64,000 nucleotides of DNA from a virus, in the IMG/VR virus record IMGVR_UViG_3300025413_001393, positions 61,103-125,102 of that record. One strand, written 5' to 3'. The notes beneath the pieces are model-generated. The model was not told the DNA's origin and searched no databases. It worked only from the letters and a program-made list of their open reading frames with translations. Shown piece by piece: positions 39,168 to 59,651 of the stretch. Made by a program: the position numbers and the translations under genes. Numbering within the stretch: position 1 is the stretch's first letter; the number at the start of each line of letters is the position of its first letter.

Positions 39168-39421
39168 TGACTTGTTAAGGCAACATATTCTTGTTTAGCG
39201 TTTCTAATAGCTTCGTGATCCATTGTAGGACCACTAATAGCTTTAATAAGCATCTCAGCAATTTTTAAACCTGCTGCAGATTTTTCGTTGGTTGTTTCTG
39301 GAGCGTATTTCAATTTGGTATATATATTTTTAGAAGAATCCCAAGTATGAAAATACGGACCAGACTCCAAATCTGTTGGAACTAATGTATCGTTATGTGT
39401 TTGTAAGTAATGTGGATTCAT
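39164..39421 (-). CDS. hypothetical protein
   Basis: 85-aa ORF. Confidence 0.45.
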   Translation of the reverse strand: MNPHYLQTHNDTLVPTDLESGPYFHTWDSSKNIYTKLKYAPETTNEKSAAGLKIAEMLIKAISGPTMDHEAIRNAKQEYVALTSQ

Positions 39422-39959
39422 GTATTTGATTATAGATTATATCTACAGCTCGTTCAACTGTCATTTTACCATAAGCTGTAGATCTTGGATGTATTCTTAT
39501 ATCAGGCCATTCTGGTACTTCATAAGGAGAGTCAATTCCAGACATATCCTTAATAAGGCCTGCTCTAAATTTTTTATATAAACCTTTAAGGTCTCTCTCT
39601 TCACATATCTCAAGAGGTGTATCCATATAGACTTCAATAAATCTAGCATTACAATACTTCGTTAAAATATCTCGTGCTAATGCTCTCATTTGTTTAAGAG
39701 GAGAAATACTTGCAACAATAACAACCTCAGCTCTTTGAAATTCAATCATATTTCTTACAGCATAGATCATTGTATTAACAGCTTTCCATCTACCTTCAAT
39801 ATCAAATCCAATAGGAGTTTTTGAATTGTATCTTAAAGTATCAGCATCAGCTACAGCAGACCTATAACCTTCAGCTTTAAGCTTTTCATTTAAAGCATTA
39901 GCGGTAGTAGTCTTACCAGCACCTGACAAACCTGTAATCCAAACAACAGTCTTATTCAT
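39393..39959 (-). CDS. cysC: adenylylsulfate (APS) kinase
   Basis: WITGLSGAGKTT, D.D.LR, ISP, EVY..TPLEICEERD.KGLYKK.RAG, GIDSPYE.P..PD. Confidence 0.92.
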   Translation of the reverse strand: MNKTVVWITGLSGAGKTTTANALNEKLKAEGYRSAVADADTLRYNSKTPIGFDIEGRWKAVNTMIYAVRNMIEFQRAEVVIVASISPLKQMRALARDILTKYCNARFIEVYMDTPLEICEERDLKGLYKKFRAGLIKDMSGIDSPYEVPEWPDIRIHPRSTAYGKMTVERAVDIIYNQIHESTLLTNT

Positions 39960-40186
39960 TAGTCAAGTGTTATGTTATGTTCTTCCATGAGTTTGTGAAG
40001 TTCTTCACGAAGAGCATAATAAGGAGTAAGTTGATCCCCTTTCATATCATCAGAAGGATATTTTGTTATGTTTCTAAGAAACTGATCCAAGTCCCAAAGA
40101 ACAGAGCGATACTTACTAGCATTAACAGCTTGTTCAAATTCATACTGATCTTCGTTAAGATTAAATTCTAGGATTGCTTTAGGCAT
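39959..40186 (-). CDS. hypothetical protein
   Basis: 75-aa ORF, overlaps cysC start. Confidence 0.6.
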   Translation of the reverse strand: MPKAILEFNLNEDQYEFEQAVNASKYRSVLWDLDQFLRNITKYPSDDMKGDQLTPYYALREELHKLMEEHNITLD

Positions 40187-40187
40187 A

Positions 40188-41426
40188 TTATTCTTTAGCT
40201 TTGTTGTTGTAAGGCCACCTTCCGTGCTTCAGGAAGTACTTGTAGTTTGGATCACTAGTATGTTTGATGATTATAAGCTCTTCTACTTTCTTTTCAAGCT
40301 TTACTACTCTTAAAGCTAAATCAGATGCTGTCTGTTCCCAAGACTTTTCTGTATTCTCTTCCCTTGCATGTTTACACATATTACATGGACAGATCCACTC
40401 TTTATCTTCCTGAAGCTCATTAGGAAGTGACACAGGCAGAGATTCTGCACATTCTGTAACTCTCTTCAGAAGCTCTTTAGCATTAAACTCCACTTCCTCT
40501 CCCTTCCAATCAATAGGCTCTTCAACCCAAGGCTTAAAAGTCTTCTTCTCTTCAATACCATATACCTCCCTCAACTTTGCTTGAACAGCATCATCTACAG
40601 CAACCTTTGTTGTACTCCACTTTTCAGGCTCATAACCACCCCAATGAATAGGGTACATAGGATGTTTTTGTTCATCCTTTTCAAAGACATAATCAACAAT
40701 ATCTTTCTTTAGCTTTTCGATTTCAGCTTTTTGATCTTCAATGATCTTGCAAAACTTTTTATTTTCTCTAGTAACATCTACAAGACCATTGTTAAGTTCT
40801 TTCAACCTAACTTCATATTCCTTCTCCAGTTCAAGTCTCTTCTCTAGTTCCTTATTAGCACTCTTTGCTTCTTGTTCATAGGCCTTCCGCATATTCTCAA
40901 ATGATGTTTTACATTCATCTACTTCAAAGTTCTTTCTATCAATAGCTAAAGACAAGCCATCAATTCTTTTCTTAAGCTCTTCATTCTCTTTATTAGCTGC
41001 ATTGAGCTGATGCTTAAATTCATCTCTTTCTTGAGAACACTTCTTATAATTGTTCTGAACAATCTGAAGCTTTGCTTCCATATACTTCAAACCACCCATT
41101 GTAACAAAACCATTATACTTTTCAAGAAGTTCAGTGTTTCTATTCTTCAACACAGCATAGTCATTCTTAAGAGTAAAGAGCTGATCCTGTAGATCTCTAT
41201 TTACATCACTATCAATCTCATTAACTCTTTCTATCAATTGAACATTCTCCTCCTTAAGCTGGTTGAGATTTTTAATTTCCTTCATAGCCTCATTGTATTT
41301 GCTAATAAGATTAGCAACTGATACATCCTTACCATCAGCATCTTTAATAGATGTTGTCCAAGACCAGGTTGGATATAGATTATTTATTTCTTTAGCAGAT
41401 TTAGGCTGAGACCAAATGTTGAACAT
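40188..41426 (-). CDS. long coiled-coil hypothetical protein
   Basis: 412 aa, heptad-rich; early promoter upstream. Confidence 0.65.
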   Translation of the reverse strand: MFNIWSQPKSAKEINNLYPTWSWTTSIKDADGKDVSVANLISKYNEAMKEIKNLNQLKEENVQLIERVNEIDSDVNRDLQDQLFTLKNDYAVLKNRNTELLEKYNGFVTMGGLKYMEAKLQIVQNNYKKCSQERDEFKHQLNAANKENEELKKRIDGLSLAIDRKNFEVDECKTSFENMRKAYEQEAKSANKELEKRLELEKEYEVRLKELNNGLVDVTRENKKFCKIIEDQKAEIEKLKKDIVDYVFEKDEQKHPMYPIHWGGYEPEKWSTTKVAVDDAVQAKLREVYGIEEKKTFKPWVEEPIDWKGEEVEFNAKELLKRVTECAESLPVSLPNELQEDKEWICPCNMCKHAREENTEKSWEQTASDLALRVVKLEKKVEELIIIKHTSDPNYKYFLKHGRWPYNNKAKE

Positions 41427-41433
41427 ATATAAA

Positions 41434-41461
41434 ATTATAAAGCAAAGGATAGGAAAGTCAA
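41434..41461 (-). promoter_or_regulatory. sigma70-type early promoter
   Basis: TTGACT-N16-TATAAT, ATG 7 nt downstream. Confidence 0.65.
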
Positions 41462-41474
41462 ATAAATAGTATAG

Positions 41475-42149
41475 ATGTCCAATAATATTCTTGTCATTTC
41501 AGATATTCATCTAGGAAGTCCTGTTTCAAAGGTTAAACCTCTTGCTAAGGTATTAAAAAATGAAAAATATGAACATCTTGTTGTATTGGGTGACCTATTC
41601 GATTCTAAGTATATAGAAAGATACAAAAAGAGACATTGGAATATTCTAAGTCTATTAAGAAAAATATCAAAGAAGAAGAAAGTTACTTTTATTCTTGGTA
41701 ATCATGATCTAAAGTCAAAGAACATTATTAAGATCCTAGGACTAGAGTTTGTTGAGAAGTTAGAACTTGAAGTAAATGGAAAGAAGATGTTGTTTATTCA
41801 TTTTCACCAGTTTGATCCTTTTATTTTTAAGCACCCTTGGATAACAGATATTGCTGAAAGGATTTATTATTTTTTCCAGAGCATAGACAGATCAAAGAAA
41901 TTTAGTAGATGGTTAAAGAGAACATCTAAAAGGTTCTTAAAGATCAAAACCAATATAAGAGACAAAGCTCTAAACTATATCAAAGACAAAAACTATGATG
42001 CCATTTTTGGAGGACATATTCATTTTGCTGAAAGCTTTGTATGTCCAGAATCAGGAAAAGAGTACCACAACTCAGGCTCTTTTTGTGATGAGCCTTGTCA
42101 CTATCTAATAATAGACAAGGAAGGTAAGGTTACTTTGAAAGAGATTTAA
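41475..42149 (+). CDS. metallophosphoesterase (LpxH/UDP-2,3-diacylglucosamine hydrolase-like)
   Basis: ISDIHLG, LGDLFD, GNHD, HFHQFD, GGHIH, NSGSF. Confidence 0.85.
   Translation: MSNNILVISDIHLGSPVSKVKPLAKVLKNEKYEHLVVLGDLFDSKYIERYKKRHWNILSLLRKISKKKKVTFILGNHDLKSKNIIKILGLEFVEKLELEVNGKKMLFIHFHQFDPFIFKHPWITDIAERIYYFFQSIDRSKKFSRWLKRTSKRFLKIKTNIRDKALNYIKDKNYDAIFGGHIHFAESFVCPESGKEYHNSGSFCDEPCHYLIIDKEGKVTLKEI
42066..42148 (+). repeat. 83-bp direct repeat, copy 1 (3' end of phosphoesterase)
   Basis: 77/83 identical to 42695-42777. Confidence 0.92.
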
Positions 42150-42151
42150 AG

Positions 42152-42682
42152 TTATTTATAACAAATAAAAATTGTTTCGTTTTTATTTCCTTTGGTTATA
42201 AAGGTTTTAAACCTACCTTCAGGAGCAAGTGTTTTTGTCAATCTTTCGTACAATTTAATTCGTGAAGGCTCTTTAGCTGCAAAGTATAATAATTTAACTT
42301 TATTTTTTTTTAAAAATGCTCTGATAAGATTAATCACTTTTCCAAAAACTTCAGCAGCTCCACCTACATTAGTAATACCTATTTTTTCAGACTTCTTTTT
42401 AATTCCTTTATCTTCAAAAGTTATTTCATAATTTTCAATAAAAACAGAGCCCATTAAATACTGGATCCCATCTGGTAATGCATCAATTTCCTCCTCATTT
42501 AAAATCTCCTCTAGAGGATAATGAGCAGCATACAACACATATGTTCTTCCATTAGATGCTTCGAATGTTGTCGAATGCTTTAAAGCAAAAATGTCATCAT
42601 TTGATTTCCATTTTGTTTCTGTTGAAGCTTGTGAATCGAAAAGCTCTAATAATAAAGATTCATAAAGACTATCAAATTTCAT
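42152..42682 (-). CDS. hypothetical protein between the 83-bp repeats
   Basis: TAAATA then MKFDSLYESLLLE; YFAAKEPSRIKLY motif shared with 33713-34285. Confidence 0.65.
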   Translation of the reverse strand: MKFDSLYESLLLELFDSQASTETKWKSNDDIFALKHSTTFEASNGRTYVLYAAHYPLEEILNEEEIDALPDGIQYLMGSVFIENYEITFEDKGIKKKSEKIGITNVGGAAEVFGKVINLIRAFLKKNKVKLLYFAAKEPSRIKLYERLTKTLAPEGRFKTFITKGNKNETIFICYK

Positions 42683-42694
42683 AAAATTATTTAT

Positions 42695-42777
42695 CACAAC
42701 TCAGGCTCTTTCTGTGACGAACCTTGTCACTATCTAATAATTGACAAGGAAGGTAGAGTTACTTTGAAAGAGATTTA
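42695..42777 (+). repeat. 83-bp direct repeat, copy 2
   Basis: orphan copy of phosphoesterase C-terminal coding sequence. Confidence 0.92.
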
Positions 42778-43071
42778 GTGTTTAATAGGATTTCTACGAA
42801 TTTCGTAAACCTCTTTATCAATCTCAGAAAAGAAATCCTGAACCTCTTTTAATGACATACCAGCATCCATAAGTTTTCTCTTATAATAATCTAAAGCATC
42901 TTCTTCGGATGTAAATTCAGGACTATTTCTATCAGCTCTTAAAAGACCTTTAGCATGTCTCTTATATTCGCTCTTAAGATCTTCTAGTTTCTTATTAGGA
43001 AACATTTTTGACTTTGCATTCTTAATAACATCAAAATAGGCTTCTTCTAATAATCTGGCATCTTTATTCAT
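42775..43071 (-). CDS. hypothetical protein (KDARL.EEAY family)
   Basis: TAAATA then MNKDARLLEEAY. Confidence 0.6.
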   Translation of the reverse strand: MNKDARLLEEAYFDVIKNAKSKMFPNKKLEDLKSEYKRHAKGLLRADRNSPEFTSEEDALDYYKRKLMDAGMSLKEVQDFFSEIDKEVYEIRRNPIKH

Positions 43072-43105
43072 ATTATTATTTATGCTATATTGCTTTTTTT
43101 TTGAC

Positions 43106-43303
43106 TCAAATCTCATAGAACCAGCTCTTCTTAAACTTCTCAAACTCTCTTAACCAGACATTAAACTTTCTAAGTCTTCTATCAGCTTTTCTACCTCTCT
43201 TCTTTACTTTCTTAACTCCCTTAAAGATCATTAAGAAGAATAATATCATTCCTAGAGCAAACAAACCCATTGTAATATGGCCAATGAGTTCAAAAGGTGT
43301 CAT
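43106..43303 (-). CDS. small membrane protein
   Basis: N-terminal TM, basic tail. Confidence 0.5.
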   Translation of the reverse strand: MTPFELIGHITMGLFALGMILFFLMIFKGVKKVKKRGRKADRRLRKFNVWLREFEKFKKSWFYEI

Positions 43304-43468
43304 ATTATTATTTAATCTTCTAGTTTATATCTTAATTCAGTTAATACTAAATCCAGATCATAGGCAATTTGTTTAAGATCATAATTCTCAGCTAATGTTA
43401 ATGATGCTATAACATCAGCCGAAAAGTCTGATAAATGTTCTAGAGCTTTTTGTACAGGCTGGTTCATA

Positions 43469-43831
43469 TTACTCTGGTGCTATATCAAGAACAGCTTTTC
43501 TAAGACTCTCAAGATCCTGCTTATTGTATCTATCATGCTGATCCCATTCAGGATCCCCATAATGCTCAATATACCAATCAAGTTCCTGAAGAATACCAAA
43601 TCTTAGAACATTATGAATAAGATGAACTTCAGCTTCATATAATGTCTTAAATTCTTCATCTCTTATATCATGTAAAATATAGCCATGATGCTCGACTTCA
43701 TATTCGCACAACCCATCGTAGTAATAATGAGTATTAATTCTGAAATGAAAATCCCTATCTTTGCAATGATGACAAGAGATAAGATTATGCCAAATCTTAA
43801 TCAATTCTATAATCTTCTCATGATTGGTCAT
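43469..43831 (-). CDS. hypothetical protein
   Basis: 120 aa; TTGACA-N16-TATATT at 43838-43865. Confidence 0.6.
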   Translation of the reverse strand: MTNHEKIIELIKIWHNLISCHHCKDRDFHFRINTHYYYDGLCEYEVEHHGYILHDIRDEEFKTLYEAEVHLIHNVLRFGILQELDWYIEHYGDPEWDQHDRYNKQDLESLRKAVLDIAPE

Positions 43832-43950
43832 TTCTAAAATATAGCTCGAATAACTAGGATGTCAAGAATAAATAATATTGGTACTAATAAAAAATACCTG
43901 TCACAGGGGTGCAACCCTCACAGGCTCTAGTCACCATATCCTTAAACACT

Positions 43951-44976
43951 ATGACCAGCACAAATACTTATACTCACTCCAATCACTATCTTACTCTTGT
44001 TTGTAATATAGCATTAAAAAACAAATATACAAGATGGTATTTTAATATTATTTCTAGAGCATTAGAAAGATCTAGAAACAGAACAGATGCCAAAGCCTTA
44101 TTAGGTTATGTCGAAGGCCATCATATCTTACCAACATCCTTTAAAAGAGGTGGTAATAAAGATCCTGAAAACATTGCATTCTTAACATCCAGAGAACATT
44201 TTATTATTCATGCCATTTTGGTTAAAATGTTTATTGATGTCTATAGAATGAAAATGATCAATGCTTTTCTTAGAATGAAGACAATAGGTAATAAAGATTT
44301 GCCAGACAGATACTATAATTCCCATTTGTTTAGTTATTATAGAAAATATTTTTCTGAGAGAGCAGCATATAATGCCAAAAGACAAAAAAGAACAAATAAT
44401 CTCAAGCACTGCTACAATCCTGTGACACTCGAAAGAACAAGAATATCATCTGTTGAATTGTTACCTAAAGGCTGGGTTATGGGCTGCCCTTTGAATACAA
44501 AAGGAATGATTAGTATCTGCAACTTTGAAACAAAGGAAACAAGAAGAATAAGACCTAATGAACAAATACCTGATGGATGGGTTAGAGGAAATTATAGAAA
44601 CAAAGGTAATAAAGCTGCTAAAGGAATGATAAGGATTCATAATCCAAAAACAAAAGAAGCAAAGAGAATTAAACCTGATATACCTATTCCTGTAGGATTT
44701 GTTATTAAAATACCAAAACAGAGAATACCTAAACCTAGGACCAAATCTTCTCCAGAAGTCATAAAAAGAAAATCAGATCTGCTTAAACAAGCTCACAAAA
44801 GAGGAGCTTTTTTGTCTCTACAAAAAAAGATAAAACAATACACTCTAGAGGGCGAATTTCTAAAAGAATGGAATTCTGCTCAAGAAGCTGTACTTTTTTA
44901 TAAATGTAAAGGAATACCTCATTGTGCTAAAGGTAGGACAAAATCTTCAGCTGGATTTTTGTGGAAATTTTCCTAA
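43951..44976 (+). mobile_element. HNH homing endonuclease with NUMOD1/IENR1-type C-terminus
   Basis: KYTRWY..II, EGHHILP, N.A.LT.REHFIIH; repeated GW..G units; IKQYTLEGEFLKEWNSA...AGFLWKF; opposite strand to neighbours. Confidence 0.85.
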
Positions 44977-45006
44977 TACCAAAATTTATTGAGCTCAATT
45001 ATCTTA

Positions 45007-45240
45007 TCATGATTTGTCATAATCTTCATAAGGGTATTCTGTTTCTAATACTGAGTTTACATCAATGTCCATATCAATCTTAATAGGCTCTCCTACTATA
45101 TGATTATTTTCATCAACTGCTCTAATAATAATGAATCTAGGATTAGTCATAGACTTTTGAACCATACCAGCACCAACAATGTGTATTACATCATTACCTA
45201 TACCACCATCTGAATCATACTCAACTCTTACTGCTTTCAT
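45007..45240 (-). CDS. hypothetical protein
   Basis: start MKAVRVEY. Confidence 0.5.
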   Translation of the reverse strand: MKAVRVEYDSDGGIGNDVIHIVGAGMVQKSMTNPRFIIIRAVDENNHIVGEPIKIDMDIDVNSVLETEYPYEDYDKS

Positions 45241-45241
45241 A

Positions 45242-45514
45242 TTAGTATCCCATATCAAGTTCTTGAGCCTGTTTTGTTAATTCATTTAATGACTCATCTC
45301 TTTCTTCTTTCCATATAAGGTTTAATATATGATCCTGAAAAGTTGTATAGTCATATGCATAGATCTCCCATTCATCAAAACCTGCATCCTGAACTGTCTT
45401 ACCTCTCATATAATTCTCCCACAAAGGGATTAACTCTTCAGGTAAAGCCTTTAAAATATCTTTTTCAAAGATACATCCATTTTCATTAGCTCTGAGATTA
45501 GGTGCTTGTTTCAT
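45242..45514 (-). CDS. hypothetical protein
   Basis: 90-aa ORF in tight operon. Confidence 0.55.
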   Translation of the reverse strand: MKQAPNLRANENGCIFEKDILKALPEELIPLWENYMRGKTVQDAGFDEWEIYAYDYTTFQDHILNLIWKEERDESLNELTKQAQELDMGY

Positions 45515-45831
45515 ATTAATCCCTCCTCTCTCAAAACTTTATTAATGATCTCAGGATCACTGTTTTCAGCTCTCCTTTTTCTTCGCTCTTCTCTAGTCTT
45601 ATCAGCTTTGGGTGTGTATAGAAGATTCCAGAACTTAGCATTAATGAGCTCTTGTTGTCTTTTATCAGACAACTCTCCATTCCCAGATCTGTGTGAATAA
45701 GACCAAGCATCAGCATTCTGCACAAGCTCTTGAATAGCTAGATTGTCCATACAACAAACAGCCATATTGATCTTGTGCAGAAATGCCTCATACTGGGCAA
45801 CTTTTTGTTTTAGTGTTGGTTTCTTACTCAT
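45511..45831 (-). CDS. hypothetical protein
   Basis: 106-aa ORF in tight operon. Confidence 0.55.
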   Translation of the reverse strand: MSKKPTLKQKVAQYEAFLHKINMAVCCMDNLAIQELVQNADAWSYSHRSGNGELSDKRQQELINAKFWNLLYTPKADKTREERRKRRAENSDPEIINKVLREEGLI

Positions 45832-46483
45832 GATGATCTGGTACTGTTTGCTTCTTAGATCTCATTATAGCTCTAATCTCACCAAAGGTCAAAGGAAAAG
45901 GATTAACCTCTACAGAAACCTCATAGTTCAATCCAGTGCTTAGGTACAGTTTTCCAAGCTCTGATTTTCCAAGATTACCATGTACATGGGCAAAAAGATG
46001 ATAGGATCCCTTAGCCTGTGCATTCCATGATAGAATTGGAAAATGAGAACATACAATAGCCTGCCCATTCACTACAACCTCAAGATAGTTTGGAACAAAA
46101 TGAATTTCCTTATGCTCTGATCCAAGAGGAAGAAATACATTACCTCCTACTGACTCTAGTAGTTGTTTGTATCCTGCCTGATGATTTCCTGGAAGAATAT
46201 AGAGCTCTTTAAAGTTAAGTCTATTGAAAAGAGCTATAAGCCTCTCATCAGCTTTATATCCAAAGATAGTATCACCTAGAAGGAAACCAATAGTGTTCTT
46301 ATTAGCTTTTGAGTTCCAGTTTTTAATCAGACCCTCATCATGCTCCTCAGAACTATTATACCCTCTGGTCTTCCAGATAGGTATATCCCATTTTGGATCA
46401 TGCCCATAGTGCATACAGCCCCAGAACAGAACATTATGATCTGTTGAGCTAACCTTTACAGGTTTATAAAATACATCCTTCAT
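45824..46483 (-). CDS. calcineurin-like metallophosphoesterase
   Basis: GCMHYGH (Cys replaces usual Asp), LGDT, PGNH, SHFP..SW, HVHG. Confidence 0.82.
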   Translation of the reverse strand: MKDVFYKPVKVSSTDHNVLFWGCMHYGHDPKWDIPIWKTRGYNSSEEHDEGLIKNWNSKANKNTIGFLLGDTIFGYKADERLIALFNRLNFKELYILPGNHQAGYKQLLESVGGNVFLPLGSEHKEIHFVPNYLEVVVNGQAIVCSHFPILSWNAQAKGSYHLFAHVHGNLGKSELGKLYLSTGLNYEVSVEVNPFPLTFGEIRAIMRSKKQTVPDHHE

Positions 46484-46523
46484 AATAAGAATATACTACA
46501 GTCAAATTCAGGACACTTCAAGC

Positions 46524-46793
46524 CTATTCTTCTTCTATCTTGTATTTGTTTGTGTTTTCAAACCTATTGGCAACAAAGATCTCAAATGCCTCTAGGATCT
46601 GTTCTTCAAATTCTGTTTGATCTTGTTCATCAACCATATCAACTACACAATCTAAGATTGCTGTCATGAAGCCTGCAATTTGTGTACTTCTCAATGTATC
46701 ATCATAATCTAATGTTCTTACAGCAGGGTTTCCTTTATACATCCCTATAATGAATACAGGGATAAAATCTTCGTCTTTTGCTTTATCGCTCAT
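46524..46793 (-). CDS. hypothetical acidic protein
   Basis: 89-aa ORF. Confidence 0.55.
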   Translation of the reverse strand: MSDKAKDEDFIPVFIIGMYKGNPAVRTLDYDDTLRSTQIAGFMTAILDCVVDMVDEQDQTEFEEQILEAFEIFVANRFENTNKYKIEEE

Positions 46794-47139
46794 GTCCTAA
46801 AAGCTTTTTGTATAGATTATTACAAGAGATCCTATGCTCACACTCCATAGGATCTCTTGCCTCAATGGCATTGAAATACTCTTCATCATTTTCTTCAAAT
46901 GCAACTTTTAAGATTTTTTGAACATCTGGATTAAGTTTTGAACTGATCAACTCAAGAATTGGTTGAACATCTCTATCTGACAAATGTAGAGTAATTTCAG
47001 ATCCATCATACTCTGATCCATAGCTAAACTCAAGCTTTAGTATAACAGGAGGTTCGTAACCATCTCCAAGAGGCTGACCTGAAAAGTCAGAATAATAATT
47101 TGCTTCTTCTCTTTGTTCTGGGACAATTACTTTTTTCAT
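46783..47139 (-). CDS. hypothetical protein
   Basis: 118-aa ORF. Confidence 0.55.
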   Translation of the reverse strand: MKKVIVPEQREEANYYSDFSGQPLGDGYEPPVILKLEFSYGSEYDGSEITLHLSDRDVQPILELISSKLNPDVQKILKVAFEENDEEYFNAIEARDPMECEHRISCNNLYKKLLGHER

Positions 47140-50510: not shown

Positions 50511-50538
50511 ATTCTTATCTATTTATAGTCCTATAAAG

Positions 50539-51377: not shown

Positions 51378-51482
51378 TAATATATTTATACTATCATGTC
51401 TGTTATATATTAAGTCAACAACAATTTGCGAGAGTCGAAATATTCTTTGTTATTATTTCGACTTATCAACATAAGTAAATAT

Positions 51483-52019: not shown

Positions 52020-52463
52020 ACTCCTGTCTTTAATAATATTATTATACAATCTTCACACGTTTTAGCATATTGTAACATTTCAAAATGCCATATGGCACCG
52101 CAGAGAGAGGTTGTTAATGGTTGCTAGCCTATGTTTTTTCTCTACCTGTAGTAAGAAACGGCTTTACTACGACCGCTTACTCTTTGTTTTCTAAGAATCG
52201 TAAGAACTTCTATAACCTATTATTATTTCCAAAAGCTTAATAGGATCTACTTCTGGTTCCTTAGGCTGCGATAGCGAGAGGAGCCATTTCATCGCAGAGA
52301 CAGAACTCTGTGATTGTATTGACTGCCTTCTTTACCTTAGCAAGGATTGCTTTGACGTTAGTCTTTGCGTTTATGTTTTGATTAGCTTTTAAGGTAGCCA
52401 ACTAATCAACTACCACGTGCATGTATAACTTTTATCAATTAAATCGAATACCGGTACTGGCCC
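52001..52463 (-). ncRNA. ssrA: tmRNA
   Basis: 5' GGGCCAG pairs 3' CTGGTCC with G3:U70, disc. A; T arm GGAGTTCAACTCTCC; tag frame 52368-52261 ending LAIAA-stop. Confidence 0.93.
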
Positions 52464-52472
52464 GTAAATTAC

Positions 52473-52484
52473 TTTCAAAGATCG
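52473..52484 (-). promoter_or_regulatory. boxA-like element before tmRNA
   Basis: CGATCTTTGAAA. Confidence 0.55.
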
Positions 52485-52516
52485 ATGAGCTTGTTGCTCT
52501 TTTGTAATTATACAGT

Positions 52517-53200
52517 CTATAAAGTAAATTTCAATAATAAACTTTCGTATATATTATCAAAAGACTCTTTTTGCATAAGTTTTTTTTCGATTCGTTCTTT
52601 AGCTAAATTTAGCTCCTTTGTAAGAAAAGCTTCTAATTCGCTAGCAGAATGAAACTCATCAGTTCTCATTTGTATCGGTTCACCTCCAGCAGCTCTCCAA
52701 GCTTCGATGTAAGGAGGATAATCATCGATAAGAATATTTGGAACTCCGTTTGTTGTAGCGATGTTTGCTTTTACGCTTGTAAATATTCTTTGCTGTGGCT
52801 TGGGATTGAGATGTTTATCAATCCATTCATTTTTGCCTTGTTCACAACCTTGAGGATCTACACCTGCTGGACACGAACAGATATTATAAGGCCCAACGAT
52901 TTTTTGCACTGTTTGTACGATTGCTGTTGTAAGTTCACCATTCTTGCCAAAAGGAGGAAGATTTGCAAAAATAGCTCTCACACTATCTTCTTCTGTAATA
53001 CTCGGATCATATTTTTTAGCAAGTTGCGTATAAAATTCTTTTTTAGAAGCCCAGATCTTTCTTTTGTCTCTTTTTTGTTCTGCAGTTACTTGTTTGTAAT
53101 CTTCTACACCATAATAATAATGCGCAACAAAATCGAAGAGATTGGCTAACAAGCCATCCATGTCGAGATACACTGTTACGCCAAGTTCTTTAAAAGTCAT
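52517..53200 (-). CDS. 5'(3')-deoxyribonucleotidase-like HAD enzyme
   Basis: VYLDMDGLLA, K..W...HL, ILIDD...I.AW.AAGG. Confidence 0.82.
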   Translation of the reverse strand: MTFKELGVTVYLDMDGLLANLFDFVAHYYYGVEDYKQVTAEQKRDKRKIWASKKEFYTQLAKKYDPSITEEDSVRAIFANLPPFGKNGELTTAIVQTVQKIVGPYNICSCPAGVDPQGCEQGKNEWIDKHLNPKPQQRIFTSVKANIATTNGVPNILIDDYPPYIEAWRAAGGEPIQMRTDEFHSASELEAFLTKELNLAKERIEKKLMQKESFDNIYESLLLKFTL

Positions 53201-53208
53201 TAAACTAT

Positions 53209-54306
53209 TTATTCATAATTGCGTACAGCAATCACATACGGAAACCTAGGAAGCTTGTTATCAGGAGTAAGATTAAAATACTTTACGGTTGCTTCTTTAC
53301 CAATGTAGTCATTCTTGTTGTCCCAAATTTCTTTCAAATACGCTCTATCTCCTTTAATGTTTGAATTAAACTCAATGCCAAGCTCGTTCTTAAAAAGCAT
53401 TGCTCCAGCTACTCCAGTCTTATTTCCTTCTCCTTCGATAACATCAAGAATTGTATATTCACTATCTTGAAACTCTTTACGCTTAAGAAGACTCTTGGAT
53501 CTTTTGTTTTCGTAAAACCCATTGAGTCGTACCATCTGGCCTTCAAAGCCACGATCCATACAAGCACCGTAATGTTCATCGAGCTCTTCAACGTTCTTTA
53601 GCTTTCCAGTAGGGACCTTTCGGATCATCAAGCTAGTATCAATTATCTTTTCAATCGTGCTGATACGATCTTCAAAAAGAAGTTCAGGATTAACAATATC
53701 ATAGATCCAATACTGAATTGCACTAGCAGCTTCCTTGAGATCTTCATCTGTAGGTTTTGTCTTCTTTACAAGAGAACAGATCTTATTGAAGTCATTGTTG
53801 AGTTTATCGCAGTAGAGCTCTCCATCGAGAATCATATGCGGAGCTTGATTAAAGATGTATTGAAGCTCTTCTCGAATGTGAGGACAGCTGTTAATGATTT
53901 TGCCATTACGACTGTACATTCCATCCTTTGTTACAATACAGCGAATACCATCGAGTTTTGGCTGAGCGAAGACGGGGAACAAAATCTTACTAGCGTAGTC
54001 GTCATAGTTCTTTGCAAGCATTGGCTCAACAAACGTGAACGAATCGATATCGGATACGCTTGTAAAATACCCTGAATCTTTTTTCTTTTTCCAGATTGCT
54101 TCAGCTTCAAAACGAGCTTGTTCGAATTCATTACGAGCGTTGGCACGACCTTCATTAGTTGATTTAGCGTATGTCCAAATAGTAGTTTGTAACTTACCAT
54201 TCACTTGTCCAAACTCTGTGCGATATTTGTTGTCCTCTACTTGTATAGTCCATTGCTGAACCGCTCCTGTGTTTGTTCTTGCGTATAGAGTTGGGAGTTG
54301 TACCAT
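53209..54306 (-). CDS. ATP-dependent DNA ligase
   Basis: QPKLDGIRC, LDGELY, EGQMVR, LLKRK, OB-fold tail with RFP. Confidence 0.93.
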   Translation of the reverse strand: MVQLPTLYARTNTGAVQQWTIQVEDNKYRTEFGQVNGKLQTTIWTYAKSTNEGRANARNEFEQARFEAEAIWKKKKDSGYFTSVSDIDSFTFVEPMLAKNYDDYASKILFPVFAQPKLDGIRCIVTKDGMYSRNGKIINSCPHIREELQYIFNQAPHMILDGELYCDKLNNDFNKICSLVKKTKPTDEDLKEAASAIQYWIYDIVNPELLFEDRISTIEKIIDTSLMIRKVPTGKLKNVEELDEHYGACMDRGFEGQMVRLNGFYENKRSKSLLKRKEFQDSEYTILDVIEGEGNKTGVAGAMLFKNELGIEFNSNIKGDRAYLKEIWDNKNDYIGKEATVKYFNLTPDNKLPRFPYVIAVRNYE

Positions 54307-54349
54307 GTTTATATAATCTTAAAATTTAACTGGACAGTCAAGAAAAAAA

Positions 54350-54395
54350 TGGTACATCGGGCAGGGATCGAACCTGCGACCTATAACGTACAGTT
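54350..54395 (-). pseudogene. orphan tRNA 3' half
   Basis: AGGTC-GCAGGTTCGATCCCTGC-CCGATGT-ACCA; no 5' half found. Confidence 0.75.
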
Positions 54396-54427
54396 GTTTA
54401 TGTGTTCGAATATAATAAATATATTAA

Positions 54428-54925
54428 ATGAATTGCGTAAATTGTCAACAGCATACAAATAATCCTAAATTTTGTTCTCGATCGTGTGCAGCTAGTTACA
54501 CAAATAGAATTTCTCCAAAAAGAAAATTAACGAAAAAGTGTACTCAGTGTGATAGTATTGTAAGAAATTACAGGTCGAGACTGTGCGAACTTCATTTTCA
54601 GCAAGAAAAAGAACTCAGTAATGAAGCATATAAGAATAGAACTATGGGCTACTATCGTTCAAAAGATTGTCTTAAAAAATTGCATAAATCTTCTATACAT
54701 GCTCACGTAAGAGGTTTGTGTAGATTGTGGCTAAAACATCTTACTACTAAACCTTGCAAATTGTGCGGATACGACAAACACGTTGAGTTGTGTCACATAA
54801 AACCTCTGTCCAGCTTTTCTGACGAATCCCTCATAAGTGAAGTTAATTCGGAAACAAATGTTGTTCAGTTGTGTCGAAATTGTCATTGGGAATTGGATCA
54901 CAACATGATTCAATTAAAAGAGTGA
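54428..54925 (+). mobile_element. HNH endonuclease with N-terminal Zn fingers
   Basis: C..C...TNNPKFCSRSCA, C..CG...HVELCHIK, N...LC.NCHWE.D; TAAATA upstream. Confidence 0.85.
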
Positions 54926-55001
54926 GGACGGTTGGGATCGAACCAACATACTCCAGTTACACATTTAATGACCGCTTAGAAGGCGGGTGTGATACGTCCC
55001 C
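54923..55001 (-). tRNA. D-arm-less tRNA-Arg(UCU)-like RNA with long variable region
   Basis: acceptor GGGGACG/CGTCCTC, loop CTTCTAA, T arm GTTGG-TTCGATC-CCAAC; only ~8 nt where the D arm should be. Confidence 0.65.
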
Positions 55002-55041
55002 GTACTTTTAACACTATACTAAATTCAAAAATCTTTGCAAC

Positions 55042-55632
55042 TTAATTTTTAAATTCTTTGAGAAATATTTCCCATTCAGTAATGTTATGTTTATTACGAA
55101 TATAAAACGTAGAAGGTAGATCTCTTGGAATAGTTGGCTTTCTGATAAGTTTTAGACCAGCTTCCTCTGGAGTCCGAGGACCTTTTCTAGAATTTACTTC
55201 TTTGTGACAAACTACACAATTTGTCCAGTTTGTTTTTCCTCCTTTTGTCCGAGGAATAATATGATCAATATTTGCTTCGGATTTAGAAAGTTTCTTGTTA
55301 GTATATTGACAAGTGCCATTATCTCTTTCCCAAATATTTGCATGAGTAAATTTTGGTCTCTTCATTGGAACTTTATCATATTCACACAAGACGATTACTT
55401 TAGGAATTTTAATATCTCCACGAACTGTTTTAATGTAGCTAGCATTATTATCATGTGGCAGCTCAATCCAATCATTCCATTTGAGAGGAAGCATATAATC
55501 TTCTCCACGAATGTCTAAAGCTGTAGCAGTATTTTGATACATCATCACAAAAGCATCGGATGGTGATTTAGCATTAATTGCTTGCCAGTTTCTGTTCAAG
55601 ACTAATACAGTTTCTTGTTTGAGATGTGACAT
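55042..55632 (-). CDS. HNH endonuclease (McrA-like)
   Basis: VLVLN..WQAI, NIWERD...CQY, IDHIIPR.KGG...W.N.V.C...N. Confidence 0.88.
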   Translation of the reverse strand: MSHLKQETVLVLNRNWQAINAKSPSDAFVMMYQNTATALDIRGEDYMLPLKWNDWIELPHDNNASYIKTVRGDIKIPKVIVLCEYDKVPMKRPKFTHANIWERDNGTCQYTNKKLSKSEANIDHIIPRTKGGKTNWTNCVVCHKEVNSRKGPRTPEEAGLKLIRKPTIPRDLPSTFYIRNKHNITEWEIFLKEFKN

Positions 55633-55651
55633 ATGTATACTTAGAATAAAA

Positions 55652-55726
55652 TGGTACACGAGGAGGGGATCGAACCCCCGACCAACGCAGTGTAAGTGCG
55701 CCGCTCTACCGCTGAGCTACCCGTGC
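55652..55726 (-). tRNA. tRNA-Val(UAC)
   Basis: cloverleaf, loop CTTACAC, CCA. Confidence 0.93.
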
Positions 55727-55776
55727 ATTAATATAAAAATAATAGCTGGTTAAAAACATTTTTCAACAACAAAAAG

Positions 55777-55850
55777 TGGAGGGGGTGAAGGGAATCGAAC
55801 CCTCTCATAAACCTTGGCAAGGTCTCAAGCTACCGTTACATCACACCCCC
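55777..55850 (-). tRNA. tRNA-Gly(GCC)
   Basis: cloverleaf, loop TTGCCAA, U73, CCA. Confidence 0.92.
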
Positions 55851-55855
55851 AAATA

Positions 55856-55937
55856 TGCTCATGGAGGGACTCGAACCCCCACTCCTTTCGAAATTAGATC
55901 CTAAGTCTAACGCGGCTGCCAATTACGCCACATGAGC
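55856..55937 (-). tRNA. tRNA-Leu(UAG)
   Basis: class II cloverleaf, loop CTTAGGA. Confidence 0.92.
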
Positions 55938-55944
55938 TAAAACA

Positions 55945-56017
55945 TGGAGGATATCGGACTCGAACCGATCACCTATAGCTTGCAAAGCTACCGCTCTACC
56001 AGATGAGCTAATCCCCC
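55945..56017 (-). tRNA. tRNA-Ala(UGC)
   Basis: loop TTTGCAA, G3:U70. Confidence 0.93.
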
Positions 56018-56039
56018 CAATAATTAGGTTAATAAAATG

Positions 56040-56124
56040 AGCCTAGGATCGGAATCGAACCGATCAACGGGTATTACCCCTAAAGGTTTTGCAGACCTCC
56101 GCTTAGCCAATTAGCTTCCTAGGC
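56040..56124 (-). tRNA. tRNA-Cys(GCA) with long variable arm
   Basis: loop CTGCAAA, U73, extra arm GGG-TAATA-CCC. Confidence 0.85.
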
Positions 56125-56130
56125 ATTAAA

Positions 56131-56220
56131 TGGAAGAGGGAGTGGGATTCGAACCCACGAAGGCTTTTAAACCTTTCAAGTTTTCAAGACTAGCTCGTTA
56201 AACCGCTCCGACATCCCTCC
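56131..56220 (-). tRNA. tRNA-Ser(UGA)
   Basis: class II, loop CTTGAAA, CCA. Confidence 0.9.
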
Positions 56221-56233
56221 GTAAATTGTAAAA

Positions 56234-56320
56234 AGGAAGCTGAGGGATTCGAACCCTCGGAGGCGATAAAGCCTCGGCAGTTTAGTAAACTGCAGCCTTA
56301 AACCGCTCGGCCAAACTTCC
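56234..56320 (-). tRNA. tRNA-Ser(ACU), A34 anticodon
   Basis: class II, stem GCAGT/ACTGC, loop TTACTAA. Confidence 0.88.
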
Positions 56321-56326
56321 GTAAAA

Positions 56327-56398
56327 TGGTGTCTCTTGAAGGTAACGCTCCTTCTCATCATCGTTCGTAGCGACGAGTCTAAATCTTTTAGAAGAGAC
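56327..56398 (-). tRNA. tRNA-Arg(ACG), atypical D and T loops
   Basis: acceptor GTCTCTT/AAGAGAC, loop CTACGAA, T loop AGCGTTA, CCA. Confidence 0.75.
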
Positions 56399-56408
56399 AA
56401 AAAAAAAA

Positions 56409-56483
56409 TGGTGCGGTATGAGAGAATCGAACTCTCGTCTCAGCTTTGGAAGAGCCACGTAATGGCCATTATACCAATACCGC
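56409..56483 (-). tRNA. tRNA-Gly(UCC)
   Basis: loop CTTCCAA, CCA. Confidence 0.9.
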
Positions 56484-56487
56484 AAAA

Positions 56488-56562
56488 TGGTCAGGAGGCT
56501 GGGATTTGCACCCAAACCGATTCTTTCACAGAGAATAATGCTACTATTACACCACAACCTGA
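56488..56562 (-). tRNA. tRNA-His(GUG)
   Basis: loop CTGTGAA; U-1:A73 instead of G-1:C73; two acceptor mismatches. Confidence 0.82.
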
Positions 56563-56569
56563 TAAAAAA

Positions 56570-56646
56570 TGGCGGAACCGAAGGGACTTGAACCCTCGAC
56601 CCCCGCAGTGACAGTGCGGTGCTCTAACCAGCTGAGCTACGATTCC
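56570..56646 (-). tRNA. tRNA-Asp(GUC)
   Basis: canonical, loop CTGTCAC, CCA. Confidence 0.95.
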
Positions 56647-56652
56647 GTTTAA

Positions 56653-56725
56653 TAGGACTAGTAGGATTCGAACCTACGACAAACACGTTATCAACATGCC
56701 ACTCTACCAACTGAGTTATAGTCCT
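56653..56725 (-). tRNA. tRNA-Ile(GAU)
   Basis: loop TTGATAA. Confidence 0.92.
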
Positions 56726-56732
56726 GAAAAAA

Positions 56733-56805
56733 TGGCAGGAGAGGGAATCGAACCCTCAATCTTTGCGTTATGAGCGCAACGACTTAACCGTTTGTCCATC
56801 CTGCG
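56733..56805 (-). tRNA. tRNA-Met(CAU) (elongator/initiator/Ile2 unresolved)
   Basis: loop CTCATAA; C1xC72 mismatch but no triple G-C anticodon stem. Confidence 0.85.
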
Positions 56806-56833
56806 TTAAAAATTAATAGCTCTAGTAGTCTAT

Positions 56834-56904
56834 TGGGTTATGGGAGAATTGAACTCCCCTCTAGCGGTTAAAAGCCGCTTGCTTCACCTCAAAGCTTATA
56901 ACCC
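56834..56904 (-). tRNA. tRNA-Lys(UUU)
   Basis: loop CTTTTAA. Confidence 0.9.
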
Positions 56905-56911
56905 TAGAATA

Positions 56912-56993
56912 TGGGCAGAGAAGGACTCGAACCTTCGAACTCCAAGGAGAGGAGATTTACAGTCTCCGGCAATTGCCGCTATGCGATCTACCC
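56912..56993 (-). tRNA. tRNA-Tyr(GUA)
   Basis: class II, loop CTGTAAA. Confidence 0.92.
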
Positions 56994-56997
56994 TAAA

Positions 56998-57072
56998 TGG
57001 CACGCCGGGTAGGAGTCGAACCTACGTAAGGCAGTTTTGGAGACTGCTGCACAGCCACTGTACCACCGACGT
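56998..57072 (-). tRNA. tRNA-Trp(CCA), copy 2
   Basis: loop CTCCAAA, G73, CCA; unrelated in sequence to copy 1. Confidence 0.9.
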
Positions 57073-57081
57073 ATAAAAAAA

Positions 57082-57155
57082 TGGAGCCCAGTAAGAGAAT
57101 CGAACTCTTGTTTGATGATTACAAATCAACCGTTTTACCATTAAACTAACCGGGC
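57082..57155 (-). tRNA. tRNA-Thr(UGU)
   Basis: loop TTTGTAA, CCA. Confidence 0.9.
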
Positions 57156-57222
57156 ATAATATTTGACAATTGTTTTGCGTACTGCGGTCGGTCAAATACA
57201 ACCGCAGTTACAACCAGCTAAA

Positions 57223-57235
57223 ATTTTCAAAGATC
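57223..57235 (-). promoter_or_regulatory. boxA-like element before tRNA cluster
   Basis: TGATCTTTGAAAA, followed by hairpin ACTGCGGT/ACCGCAGT (57180-57207). Confidence 0.65.
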
Positions 57236-57312
57236 AAACATTGACTCTTGGACAATGTCGTTAATATATTTAAGACTATAAAGGCACTTCGTCGACACGA
57301 CAACGATATATT

Positions 57313-57855
57313 TTAAGAATAAACTCTTTCGTGCAAAACACCAATATACGGAAGATCTCTATATTTGCCTTCGTAGTCCAATCCATATCCGACGACAAAC
57401 TTGTCAGGTATGTCCAAACAGACAAAATCAGCTTGAAAATTGTTTATTCTTTTGTCTGTCTGTTTGTCAAGAAGTACGCATGTAGCAACAGACAAAGCTT
57501 CAGAAGATTCAATAATCTCTTTGACTGTACTCAAAGTCAAGCCTGTGTCCAAAATATCATCAACAATTAAAACGTGTTTGTTCTTAAAAATTGAAGGATC
57601 AAAATGTTCATCGAGAGAAACTACTCCTGTTGATTGAGTTCCTTTGTAACTTTTTGCTCTAACAAACTCAACATAAACTCCATGTTGCAATGCTCTAACA
57701 AGATCAGCTACAAAAACAAAACTACCATCCAGTAATGCTAATATATGTAAATTTTGTTTATCGTTATATTCTTGATCAATACGAGCAGCCAATTCTTCAA
57801 TTTTAGCATTGATATCTTTTGAAATGCATAAAACTTCTTTGATGTCATTAAACAT
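57313..57855 (-). CDS. hpt: hypoxanthine-guanine phosphoribosyltransferase
   Basis: LDGSFVFVADL, VLIVDDILDTGLTL, FVVGYGLDY..KYRDLP. Confidence 0.92.
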   Translation of the reverse strand: MFNDIKEVLCISKDINAKIEELAARIDQEYNDKQNLHILALLDGSFVFVADLVRALQHGVYVEFVRAKSYKGTQSTGVVSLDEHFDPSIFKNKHVLIVDDILDTGLTLSTVKEIIESSEALSVATCVLLDKQTDKRINNFQADFVCLDIPDKFVVGYGLDYEGKYRDLPYIGVLHERVYS

Positions 57856-57890
57856 GGCTGTTAATCTTATTGAAACAATTTACAAATGTT

Positions 57891-58709
57891 TTATTTAGTA
57901 TAACCGAAACCTTGTTGATACCAAGCAAAGTTACTATCAATCCAATCGCAAACTTGCTTACCAAGAATTTGATTATAATCAGGTGTAAGAGGCTGAACGG
58001 ACTTACGAATTGTGTGAAGATCGGATGTTAGACCGTAAACAGAATCATCTTCCTTAATAGTTTGCTCGACGTTTTGAAAGTCATGCTTGTATGGATTAAG
58101 ATTTAGATACTCGTATACTTTATTCATCTCTCTGTCTGGATATGATGTAAGATCTTCAGCTCTAATATAAAGAACTTCTTTATTAATACCTTCGAGAAAA
58201 GTCTGCTGCAACCTTTCAAGAGCTAACCCTACCGGAGGCCCTGCAACCCAGGCATCAATTCTCTTAGCTGTACTTGTACCTTTCATCTCAGCATGATTTT
58301 GAATATCTTGATGATGTTCTTGATTCTTTCTATAAATCTTTTCCATAGATGAAAAGACGCTCTTTAAATTTCTCACCACACAAATCATCTTAGGTTTTTC
58401 ACCCATAAACGTTTCAAACCATTTATAGTGGATAGTACCACCTCGAGTCTTGATGCAAAGATTTGACTTATCAGTATACTCTGCAGCATAACCTAGTAAG
58501 CCACCCTTACAGAATCCACGCCAGGTCTTTAGAGCTAGGTTAGAATCCATTGCTTTTACTTCAGGTGTGTTTGTAAAGTTCATTCGAGCACCATAAAGAT
58601 ACTCAAGAACTGGGTCAGTAGGTGTAGCGCAAATTTCAGGATTCTGATTGAGAATGCACTGCATAAGAGTGCTCATACTACGAGGCATTGAGGAGTTAAA
58701 GAATATCAT
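57891..58709 (-). CDS. sulfotransferase (PAPS-dependent, P-loop-like fold)
   Basis: SSMPRSMST 5'-PSB loop, VVRN..S.FSS 3'-PB motif, IRAEDL...P...M..VYEYL. Confidence 0.82.
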   Translation of the reverse strand: MIFFNSSMPRSMSTLMQCILNQNPEICATPTDPVLEYLYGARMNFTNTPEVKAMDSNLALKTWRGFCKGGLLGYAAEYTDKSNLCIKTRGGTIHYKWFETFMGEKPKMICVVRNLKSVFSSMEKIYRKNQEHHQDIQNHAEMKGTSTAKRIDAWVAGPPVGLALERLQQTFLEGINKEVLYIRAEDLTSYPDREMNKVYEYLNLNPYKHDFQNVEQTIKEDDSVYGLTSDLHTIRKSVQPLTPDYNQILGKQVCDWIDSNFAWYQQGFGYTK

Positions 58710-58712
58710 AAT

Positions 58713-59651
58713 TTAAAAATTAATAACTGGTTGAGGTGCAATTTCAAAAAGGTTTTCTCCACCCTTTGTTCCTAGAATAGATTCAATAAATTGCTCTTTG
58801 TTAAACATAGTGCCGATATTATCATACGGACATTCATGAAATCTACCACCAGTCCAATCGTCTTCTTCGAGATATGAGTCTATTCTATGCCTAAATGATT
58901 CAACGCCAGTTGCTACAATGTTGTCGTGTATTGTATGGCCGAATACAATAGGAGAGTTAGAAATCCAGCCAACTGTTGCTTTCTTGTTAAAAGCTGCAGC
59001 TGCATGCTGAGCAAACGAATCGATAGCAAGAATTTTATCAGACAGAGATATATAACAGAACAAGTTTCTAAAGCTGTCGGATATGTGAATTGTTCCTTCA
59101 ATTGCTGGTTGGTTTTCTCTACGAATATGAAGTACTTTTGAAAACTTATCTTTAACAGAATTAACAACATCTTGAGCAAAAGCTGGAGGAAGATCTCGAG
59201 ACCACGAATAAGGATGTCCTTGTTGTTCAGCTCCACCAGATGATTGTACTATCAAAATTGGACCATCCTTTTGCAATTTGTTTTGAGCAAACAAAAGCTC
59301 TCGCTCTGTTAAGAAGATTTCAGGCTTTGTATCAACACAAGGAATGTTTAGTACATCGCACCAAATTTCTGTGAGAGACTTCTTCTTATAGAGAAGATCT
59401 CCACTGTGATAAGGCTCCATACGAAGAATTACAGAATCCTTCTTGTCAATATAATCATCGTAAAAATAAGGAATGTTACCAAACTTATAAACCCTATGAA
59501 TGTTTGGATTATGAATGAAAACTTCAGGCCATGCACAAACTACTATAAGTTTGTGTTCAGGATAATGAGCTTTGATTGATTTTACAACAGCTGTAGCAGC
59601 AATGTTCTTACCACAGCCACCATCAATATGAAAGATAACAAATTTGTCCAT
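58713..59651 (-). CDS. GT9-like glycosyltransferase
   Basis: GGCGKNIAATAVVKSIK..YP, AIDSF.QH.AAAF.K.A. Confidence 0.7.
   Translation of the reverse strand: MDKFVIFHIDGGCGKNIAATAVVKSIKAHYPEHKLIVVCAWPEVFIHNPNIHRVYKFGNIPYFYDDYIDKKDSVILRMEPYHSGDLLYKKKSLTEIWCDVLNIPCVDTKPEIFLTERELLFAQNKLQKDGPILIVQSSGGAEQQGHPYSWSRDLPPAFAQDVVNSVKDKFSKVLHIRRENQPAIEGTIHISDSFRNLFCYISLSDKILAIDSFAQHAAAAFNKKATVGWISNSPIVFGHTIHDNIVATGVESFRHRIDSYLEEDDWTGGRFHECPYDNIGTMFNKEQFIESILGTKGGENLFEIAPQPVINF

Follow-up and report, generated by a model that had tools for sequence, protein, structure and literature searches.

The DNA analysed here is a stretch of 64,000 nucleotides (the window), which forms the last 64 kb of the 125-kb IMG/VR virus record IMGVR_UViG_3300025413_001393 (positions 61,103 to 125,102 of that record). 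The record is estimated to be 59% complete, and its source is an uncultured freshwater T4-like phage. Three genes on the minus strand of the window are considered: cysC, which encodes an adenosine 5'-phosphosulfate (APS) kinase (P0001, 188 amino acids; 39393-39959); a gene for a 3'-phosphoadenosine 5'-phosphosulfate (PAPS)-type sulfotransferase of the Sulfotransfer_3/TPST-like type (P0002, 272 amino acids; 57891-58709); and a gene for a GT9-like GT-B protein (P0003, 312 amino acids; 58713-59651). We conclude with moderate confidence, from sequence comparison and context, that the phage runs PAPS-dependent sulfation, in which CysC would supply PAPS and the other two genes, as a mobile cassette, would carry out the sulfation, likely of a virion-fibre glycan or a phage glycoconjugate. 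In such a system, cysC would be a helper gene and would not serve cysteine assimilation.

Each of the three genes has hundreds of conserved homologues, and they are therefore real genes and not chance open reading frames (ORFs). A preliminary description of this DNA had reported an intact cysC and a sulfotransferase gene directly downstream of a GT9-like gene, and the ORFs indeed lie exactly where it placed them, all on the minus strand.

CysC matches the APS_kinase profile (PF01583) with E=1.4e-43 and 149 bits (cut-off 21.1), over profile positions 3-151 of 152. The P-loop GLSGAGKTT, the SISP serine, KGLYKK and GIDSPYE are all present, and the D38-x-D40 motif, which reads DAD here and DGD in most relatives, has both Asp residues invariant. 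In fact, the catalytic motifs are intact and do not vary across 13 phage homologues, and CysC is predicted to make PAPS from APS supplied by the host. No match to PF01747 (Sat) or PF01507 (CysD/CysH) was found in the set consisting of this record and its near-complete relatives (G000, G014, G024, G026 and G003); weak PF01507 matches in the clade cover the PP-loop only (profile positions 2-45) and are not counted as genuine. As the phage lacks genes for ATP sulfurylase, CysD and CysH, its APS must come from the host. A phage-encoded ATP sulfurylase was considered as a candidate and rejected: besides the lack of PF01747 and PF01507 matches, a search of the record with the HIGH-nucleotidyltransferase domain of locus L209 gave a chance-level match only (E=0.0047), and the 75- and 85-amino-acid ORFs that flank cysC have no HxGH motif. 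The L209 protein itself (L209:5597-6646, plus strand, record G043) is an APS kinase with a fused C-terminal cytidylyltransferase-like (HIGH nucleotidyltransferase) domain, encoded beside a sulfotransferase and a GT8 gene, and is a candidate compact PAPS synthase.

P0002 is predicted by family, motifs and fold to be a PAPS-dependent sulfotransferase. It exceeds the cut-offs of both PF13469 (34.6 bits, cut-off 27) and PF00685 (30.4 bits, cut-off 22). Its 5'-PSB loop, PRSMST at residues 9-14 with Met at the usual Gly position, is conserved in 35 homologues, and in the 3'-PB motif R113 is invariant and S121 nearly invariant over the 35 sequences. The AlphaFold2 (AF2) model has a predicted confidence score (pLDDT) of 88.7, and the Foldseek matches listed for it are PAPS/PAP-binding sulfotransferase-fold proteins, of which the best are tyrosylprotein sulfotransferases (TPST) 1 and 2 (E ~1e-7), followed by the CurM sulfotransferase domain and heparan 3-O-sulfotransferases (3-OST).

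The assignment of P0003 depends on more distant similarities. P0003 has no Pfam match and falls below the threshold of PF01075, a profile that is matched, weakly, by 13 of 60 members of the P0003 family. A profile of this family finds RfaF (1psw), and an hhalign comparison of the family with Escherichia coli WaaF reaches a probability of 92%, confined to the C-terminal domain that binds the donor; this domain includes a nearly invariant DSxxxH motif (residues 211-216 of P0003). The AF2 model (pLDDT 93.7) has a GT-B fold with GT9 proteins closest, the Foldseek ranks 1-13 being occupied by 3tov, 1psw (RfaF), 2gt1 (WaaC), 6dfe, 2h1h, 2h1f, 4rb4 (TibC) and 4rap, and the N-terminal acceptor domain gives no alignment to WaaC or WaaF. 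The family comprises 748 clusters at 50% identity, and the Atlas clusters nearest to P0003 are 96-100% viral. Because members in other phages carry fused GT25 or FkbM methyltransferase domains, the family can be placed in glycan tailoring. Judged from these profiles and models, "GT9-like" seems a fair description of P0003, short of full GT9 membership.

The sulfotransferase and the GT9-like protein are encoded as a unit. The stop codon of the GT9-like gene, which lies upstream, is separated from the ATG of the sulfotransferase gene by 3 nucleotides (TAA-att-ATG). A peptide-pattern scan yielded 28 related loci in IMG/VR; wherever these extend far enough upstream, the sulfotransferase gene is preceded by the GT9-like gene, contiguously in 23 loci and at a distance of about 0.7 kb in 3. 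When a further 48 viral records were examined, the GT9-like family was present only in the three that carry a P0002-type sulfotransferase, and each time it adjoined the sulfotransferase gene. The tie between the two proteins proposed in the preliminary description thus agrees with their adjacency throughout these loci.

For the association of cysC, a profile of phage CysC identified 79 cysC-bearing viral loci, and the 48 records of at least 40 kb among them were searched for sulfotransferases and for cysH. PF13469 (Sulfotransfer_3) is present in 18 of the 48 records and Sulfotransfer_2 (PF03567) in 4 more, that is, a sulfotransferase in 22 of 48, while a genuine PAPS_reduct gene (cysH/cysD-type) occurs in 3 of 48 and never together with a sulfotransferase. 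This comparison had been suggested as a check of the preliminary description, and it favours sulfotransferases as the partners of cysC. Among the in-clade cysC records that are at least 73% complete, all five have a sulfotransferase. As controls, we used 15 T4-like records selected by polymerase similarity only, including two complete genomes; a sulfotransferase is present in 1 of these 15 and cysC in none. Fisher tests give p=0.026 and p=0.0025, values that are only indicative, as they treat related records as independent.

The order of genes in other viruses is more persuasive evidence for the tie between cysC and sulfotransferases than these counts. At least five further viral lineages, in which CysC shares only 36-42% identity with that of the window, carry cysC and a sulfotransferase gene no more than 2 kb apart. 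For example, GT8, sulfotransferase and cysC follow each other in G042, G043 and G046; cysC precedes a sulfotransferase gene in G038 and adjoins one in G034; the two are 1.6 kb apart in G027 and G028; and in G052 the order is sulfotransferase, cysC, an unknown gene and a second sulfotransferase, followed by phosphonate-type genes. At 48% identity to P0002, the sulfotransferases of G043 and G038 belong to the same family. In this respect, the glycan context assumed in the preliminary description is plausible, given that a P0002-family enzyme stands beside cysC and GT8 in other lineages and that GT25 and FkbM domains are fused to GT9-like proteins. The run in G052 (L211:4635-10838, plus strand) has further features of its own: it is preceded by gp46-like and homing-endonuclease-like genes, and the second sulfotransferase gene is followed by genes for a class-V aminotransferase, an ornithine cyclodeaminase-like protein and a cytidylyltransferase/PEP-mutase. 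This run looks like an island that combines sulfate and phosphonate decoration.

The cassette also appears to be mobile. Between G001 and the window, the sulfotransferases are 86% and the GT9-like proteins 79% identical, compared with 45% for the polymerase and 47% for UvsX, and over L004, L006, L023 and others, the cassette is 79-86% identical and polymerase and UvsX only 44-47%. In contrast, the complete 217-kb genome G056, which is closer by its core genes (UvsX 78%, polymerase 66%), has neither the sulfotransferase nor the GT9-like gene nor cysC. The cassette varies much less than the core genes do and is nonetheless absent from the closer G056, which suggests, as the simplest reading, lateral exchange of an accessory cassette among co-occurring freshwater T4-like phages.

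The surroundings of the cassette in the relatives point to virion fibres. Long flanks are available for 10 of the relatives' loci, and in 9 of these the cassette is convergent with ORFs of 500-2000 amino acids that consist of 44-59% Ser/Thr/Asn/Gly, some of them being Cys-rich (3.5-8% Cys). These ORFs are located 0-1.5 kb downstream of the sulfotransferase gene in L002-L023 (3.2 kb in L019), and of six that were scanned, three have matches among the PHROG families for tail spikes, tail fibres or virion structure. In the window and in G005, the cassette instead adjoins a phosphoribosyltransferase gene, tRNA-like elements and small ORFs. No homologue of the relatives' fibre genes was found in the available part of this genome, and the sole flank gene of the relatives with a homologue in this record, a 620-amino-acid gene upstream of their cassettes, has it far from the cassette.

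From these observations, the following mechanism can be proposed. The ATP sulfurylase of the host would make APS, and CysC, to judge from its family membership and intact motifs, would phosphorylate it and enlarge the PAPS pool during infection. The laterally mobile cassette would then act: the GT9-like GT-B enzyme would attach or recognise a sugar, and the TPST/Sulfotransfer_3-type enzyme would transfer sulfate from PAPS onto the product. The likeliest acceptor would be a virion-fibre glycan or another phage-made glycoconjugate, considering the fibre-gene neighbours in the relatives and the glycosyltransferase neighbours in other lineages. We prefer the virion-fibre glycan, by association only, and a small molecule may be among the alternatives. 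In this scheme cysC would be a donor-supply helper, useful but dispensable, and not a gene of cysteine assimilation.

Several observations weigh against this proposal. The records searched are in many cases fragments and mutually related, so the counts given above are not independent. In the window, cysC is 18 kb away from the cassette and does not form an operon with it. The cassette occurs without cysC in G001 (91% complete) and G004 (77% complete), whereas G006 (60% complete) has cysC and no sulfotransferase in its available part, and in G048 and G049, which are small complete phages, cysC is accompanied by cysH. No ATP sulfurylase is encoded, which leaves the supply dependent on the host. 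As for the acceptor, no fibre gene flanks the cassette in the window, and the closest folds to P0002 are protein-tyrosine sulfotransferases at a TM score of about 0.5, so that a sugar acceptor is only tentative. Finally, the N-terminal catalytic Asp of GT9 enzymes (Asp13 in the G-D motif of WaaC) is not conserved in the P0003 family, which has a nearly invariant GGxGK instead and in which D10 is not conserved; glycosyl transfer by P0003 itself is therefore something that we infer.

Some of these observations would be expected if cysC were an ordinary auxiliary metabolic gene (AMG) for assimilatory sulfate reduction, raising the cysteine and methionine supply of the host, and if the cassette were unlinked to it and used the host's own PAPS. 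Published work interprets viral cysC as such a gene (PMC10914622; bioRxiv 10.1101/2021.01.05.425418), and this explanation accords with the 18-kb distance of cysC from the cassette and its place among small early-type ORFs, with the cassettes that lack cysC in G001 and G004, and with the pairing of cysC and cysH in G048 and G049. We nevertheless consider it unlikely for the present clade, in which searches with PF01507 and PF01747 revealed no cysH, cysD or sat. Furthermore, sulfotransferases outnumber cysH by 22 to 3 among the cysC-bearing records, cysC repeatedly adjoins sulfotransferase genes, and the control phages without a sulfotransferase are also without cysC. It is also relevant that assimilation in hosts with APS reductase does not pass through PAPS. 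On balance, the cysC of the clade is best understood, from its distribution and gene context, as a non-essential gene that relies on host APS and enlarges the PAPS pool available to the phage sulfotransferase. The role as a donor-supply gene put forward in the preliminary description is hence retained as regards the association with sulfotransferases and the lack of assimilation genes in the clade, although it is not obligatory, as the 91%-complete relative with a cassette and no cysC demonstrates.

Two other explanations concern what the cassette modifies. The pair might act on a protein directly, P0003 glycosylating a fibre in the manner of the autotransporter heptosyltransferases TibC and AAH and P0002 sulfating tyrosine, which would give a sulfated and glycosylated fibre with no sulfated sugar. 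TPST1 and TPST2 are the top structural matches of P0002 and are weak matches by sequence too, the top GT9 matches of P0003 include TibC, and the relatives' cassettes are flanked by fibre genes. However, the TM score to TPST (about 0.5) is no better than that to the heparan 3-O-sulfotransferases, and both the P0002-family sulfotransferase beside GT8 in another lineage and the GT25 and FkbM fusions of the GT9-like family fit glycan tailoring better; we assign this explanation a small probability. A still smaller one is assigned to the remodelling of the host envelope, in which the cassette would alter the lipopolysaccharide (LPS) core or the capsule during infection, thereby blocking superinfection or reducing the sticking of progeny to debris, and would leave the virion unmodified. 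The nearest solved relatives of P0003 are in fact LPS-core heptosyltransferases, GT25 "LPS biosynthesis" domains are fused to members of its family, and the cassette of the window is not near structural genes. Opposed to this are the almost wholly viral composition of the nearest Atlas clusters, the acceptor-side N-domain of P0003, which does not align to WaaC/WaaF, and the location of the cassette inside a fibre gene cluster in most relatives.

For the proposed PAPS-dependent sulfation, these comparisons also limit what can be kept of the wider scheme in the preliminary description, which had the phage building a glycosyl-methyl-sulfate modification. Its donor-supply part is backed by comparative genomics, and the acceptor and the wider pathway remain conjecture. 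In particular, the step in which sulfate is placed on a sugar attached by the GT9-like enzyme itself is hypothetical, the closest folds of P0002 being those of protein-tyrosine sulfotransferases. The proposed link to a GT/FkbM island (10962-19145) finds no backing beyond the FkbM fusions elsewhere in the GT9-like family, and the island is 40 kb from the cassette. The same applies to the removal of 3'-phosphoadenosine 5'-phosphate (pAp) by a DHH/NrnA enzyme. The DHH protein in question (4315-5187), whose gene overlaps the gp41-type helicase gene, was rejected as a pAp remover: three of four near-complete relatives (G014, G026 and G001) have no homologue, and the fourth, G024, has only a 32%-identical one. 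Because the DHH gene is not co-distributed with cysC or with the cassette, this role is without comparative support.

The record as a whole has the gene content of a T4-like phage, with gp32, a DnaB-type helicase, UvsX/RecA, a family-B DNA polymerase, gp46/gp47-type nuclease subunits and UvsW. Its relatives' records are about 200-226 kb long. Among the polymerases of cultured phages, none is more than 33% identical to that of the record, and a nucleotide search with the cassette against cultured phages gave no match. With regard to expression signals, cysC is situated among small early-type ORFs, behind sigma-70-like promoters. A candidate sigma-70-type promoter (TTGACT-16-TATAAT; 41434-41461, minus strand) stands ahead of the run formed by a 412-amino-acid ORF, a 75-amino-acid ORF and cysC; its match to 11 of 12 consensus positions is weak evidence. 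Promoter-like sites are mildly enriched in this region (41 found against 30.9 +/- 6.0 expected), and sigma-70-type sites around the cassette are at background level. The T4 late promoter TATAAATA occurs at 8 sites, compared with 8.05 expected, and none of them is close to cysC, the sulfotransferase gene or the GT9-like gene.

The genes next to the cassette in the window are of various types. Immediately downstream of the sulfotransferase gene is a phosphoribosyltransferase gene of the Pribosyltran family (PF00156, E=2.4e-27; 57313-57855, minus strand), which is not kept beside the relatives' cassettes. Directly upstream of the GT9-like gene lies a gene for a small NOV_C-domain protein (PF13020, E=9.5e-9; 59686-60036, minus strand), apparently restriction-endonuclease-like (PD-(D/E)xK). 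The gene for a PQ-loop repeat membrane protein of 116 amino acids (PF04193, E=8e-10; 59960-60310, minus strand), of the SemiSWEET/PQ-loop transporter type, is also just upstream, and such a gene is found near the cassette in one relative's locus only (L003). Farther away are genes for a DUF1003 membrane protein (E=4e-29; 61131-61577), on the plus strand and hence opposite to the cassette, and for an ATP-dependent DNA ligase (53209-54306, minus strand).

Ecosystem studies routinely class viral cysC with the auxiliary genes of sulfur assimilation. In freshwater phages it has been read as an AMG of assimilatory sulfate reduction (PMC10914622; bioRxiv 10.1101/2021.01.05.425418); its viral transcripts can exceed those of the hosts in lakes (PMC10914622), and a cysC-expressing 210-kb phage of Lake Mendota is much like the present clade (bioRxiv 10.1101/2021.01.05.425418). 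If the main role of cysC is to supply phage sulfotransferases, such biogeochemical interpretations have to be revised, and phages would make sulfated glycoconjugates, which have been shown for no phage in the literature searched. The role of phage sulfotransferases has been stated to be unclear (PMC10580990). Our full-text literature search for phage-encoded sulfotransferase and variants of this term returned nothing, and we found no published paper that links phage PAPS supply (cysC) to sulfotransferases. More speculatively, the GT9-like/sulfotransferase pair could be a horizontally exchanged kit for sulfated tail-fibre glycans, and the abundant phage cysC genes and transcripts reported for freshwater lakes could reflect sulfation of the virion or surface, not sulfur assimilation; we regard this extended version as possible but doubtful. 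If it is true, both a new type of virion modification and a role as an ecological sulfur sink would be added to what has been described for phages. For experimental work, the conserved and mobile cassette, being compact, lends itself to expression and assay.

Compared with the freshwater AMG phages, the present clade shares the same cysC family and a similarly large genome, and both papers cited above report that cysC is expressed in situ. The difference is in the partners: neither paper mentions sulfotransferases, whereas in the present records it is sulfotransferases, and not cysH, that accompany cysC. Indeed, an assimilatory AMG set would include cysH or another assimilation gene, and none stands beside cysC in this clade (no true PF01507 match).

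For the sulfotransferase, annotated but unstudied Sulfotransfer_3 proteins that are 23-30% identical to P0002 are present in the cultured cyanophages S-SRM01, S-SKS1 and S-SCSM1. In S-SRM01, the gene lies inside a glycosyltransferase/epimerase cluster, and in S-SCSM1 the late sigma factor gene is followed by two genes annotated "endonuclease" and then directly by the sulfotransferase gene, apparently in the gp47/gp46 position. Unlike the window, these three cyanophages have no GT9-like partner, and no cysC match was found in their records. For the GT9-like protein, the best matches are the GT9 enzymes WaaC/WaaF (RfaF, 1psw) and TibC (4rb4), with which P0003 shares the GT-B fold; its C-terminal donor domain is homologous to that of WaaF, including DSxxxH(A)AA. 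P0003 differs from them in its score below the PF01075 threshold, its unaligned N-domain, the GGxGK at the position of the GD catalytic Asp and its almost wholly viral nearest clusters.

In rhizobia, NodP and NodQ, a dedicated ATP sulfurylase and APS kinase, feed the sulfotransferase NodH in the sulfation of Nod factors. The phage differs from this system in that it lacks its own ATP sulfurylase (CysDN or Sat), and in that its kinase and transferase genes are separated by 18 kb and form no operon, although they are adjacent in other viral lineages. Moreover, the carrier is a lytic T4-like phage, whose acceptor is only predicted, from gene context. NodPQ-NodH is nonetheless the closest functional analogue: in both cases, an APS kinase on a mobile element would supply PAPS to a co-encoded, carbohydrate-directed sulfotransferase apart from housekeeping assimilation, and both the kinase and the sulfotransferase are encoded in this record and in all five of the in-clade cysC records that are at least 73% complete.

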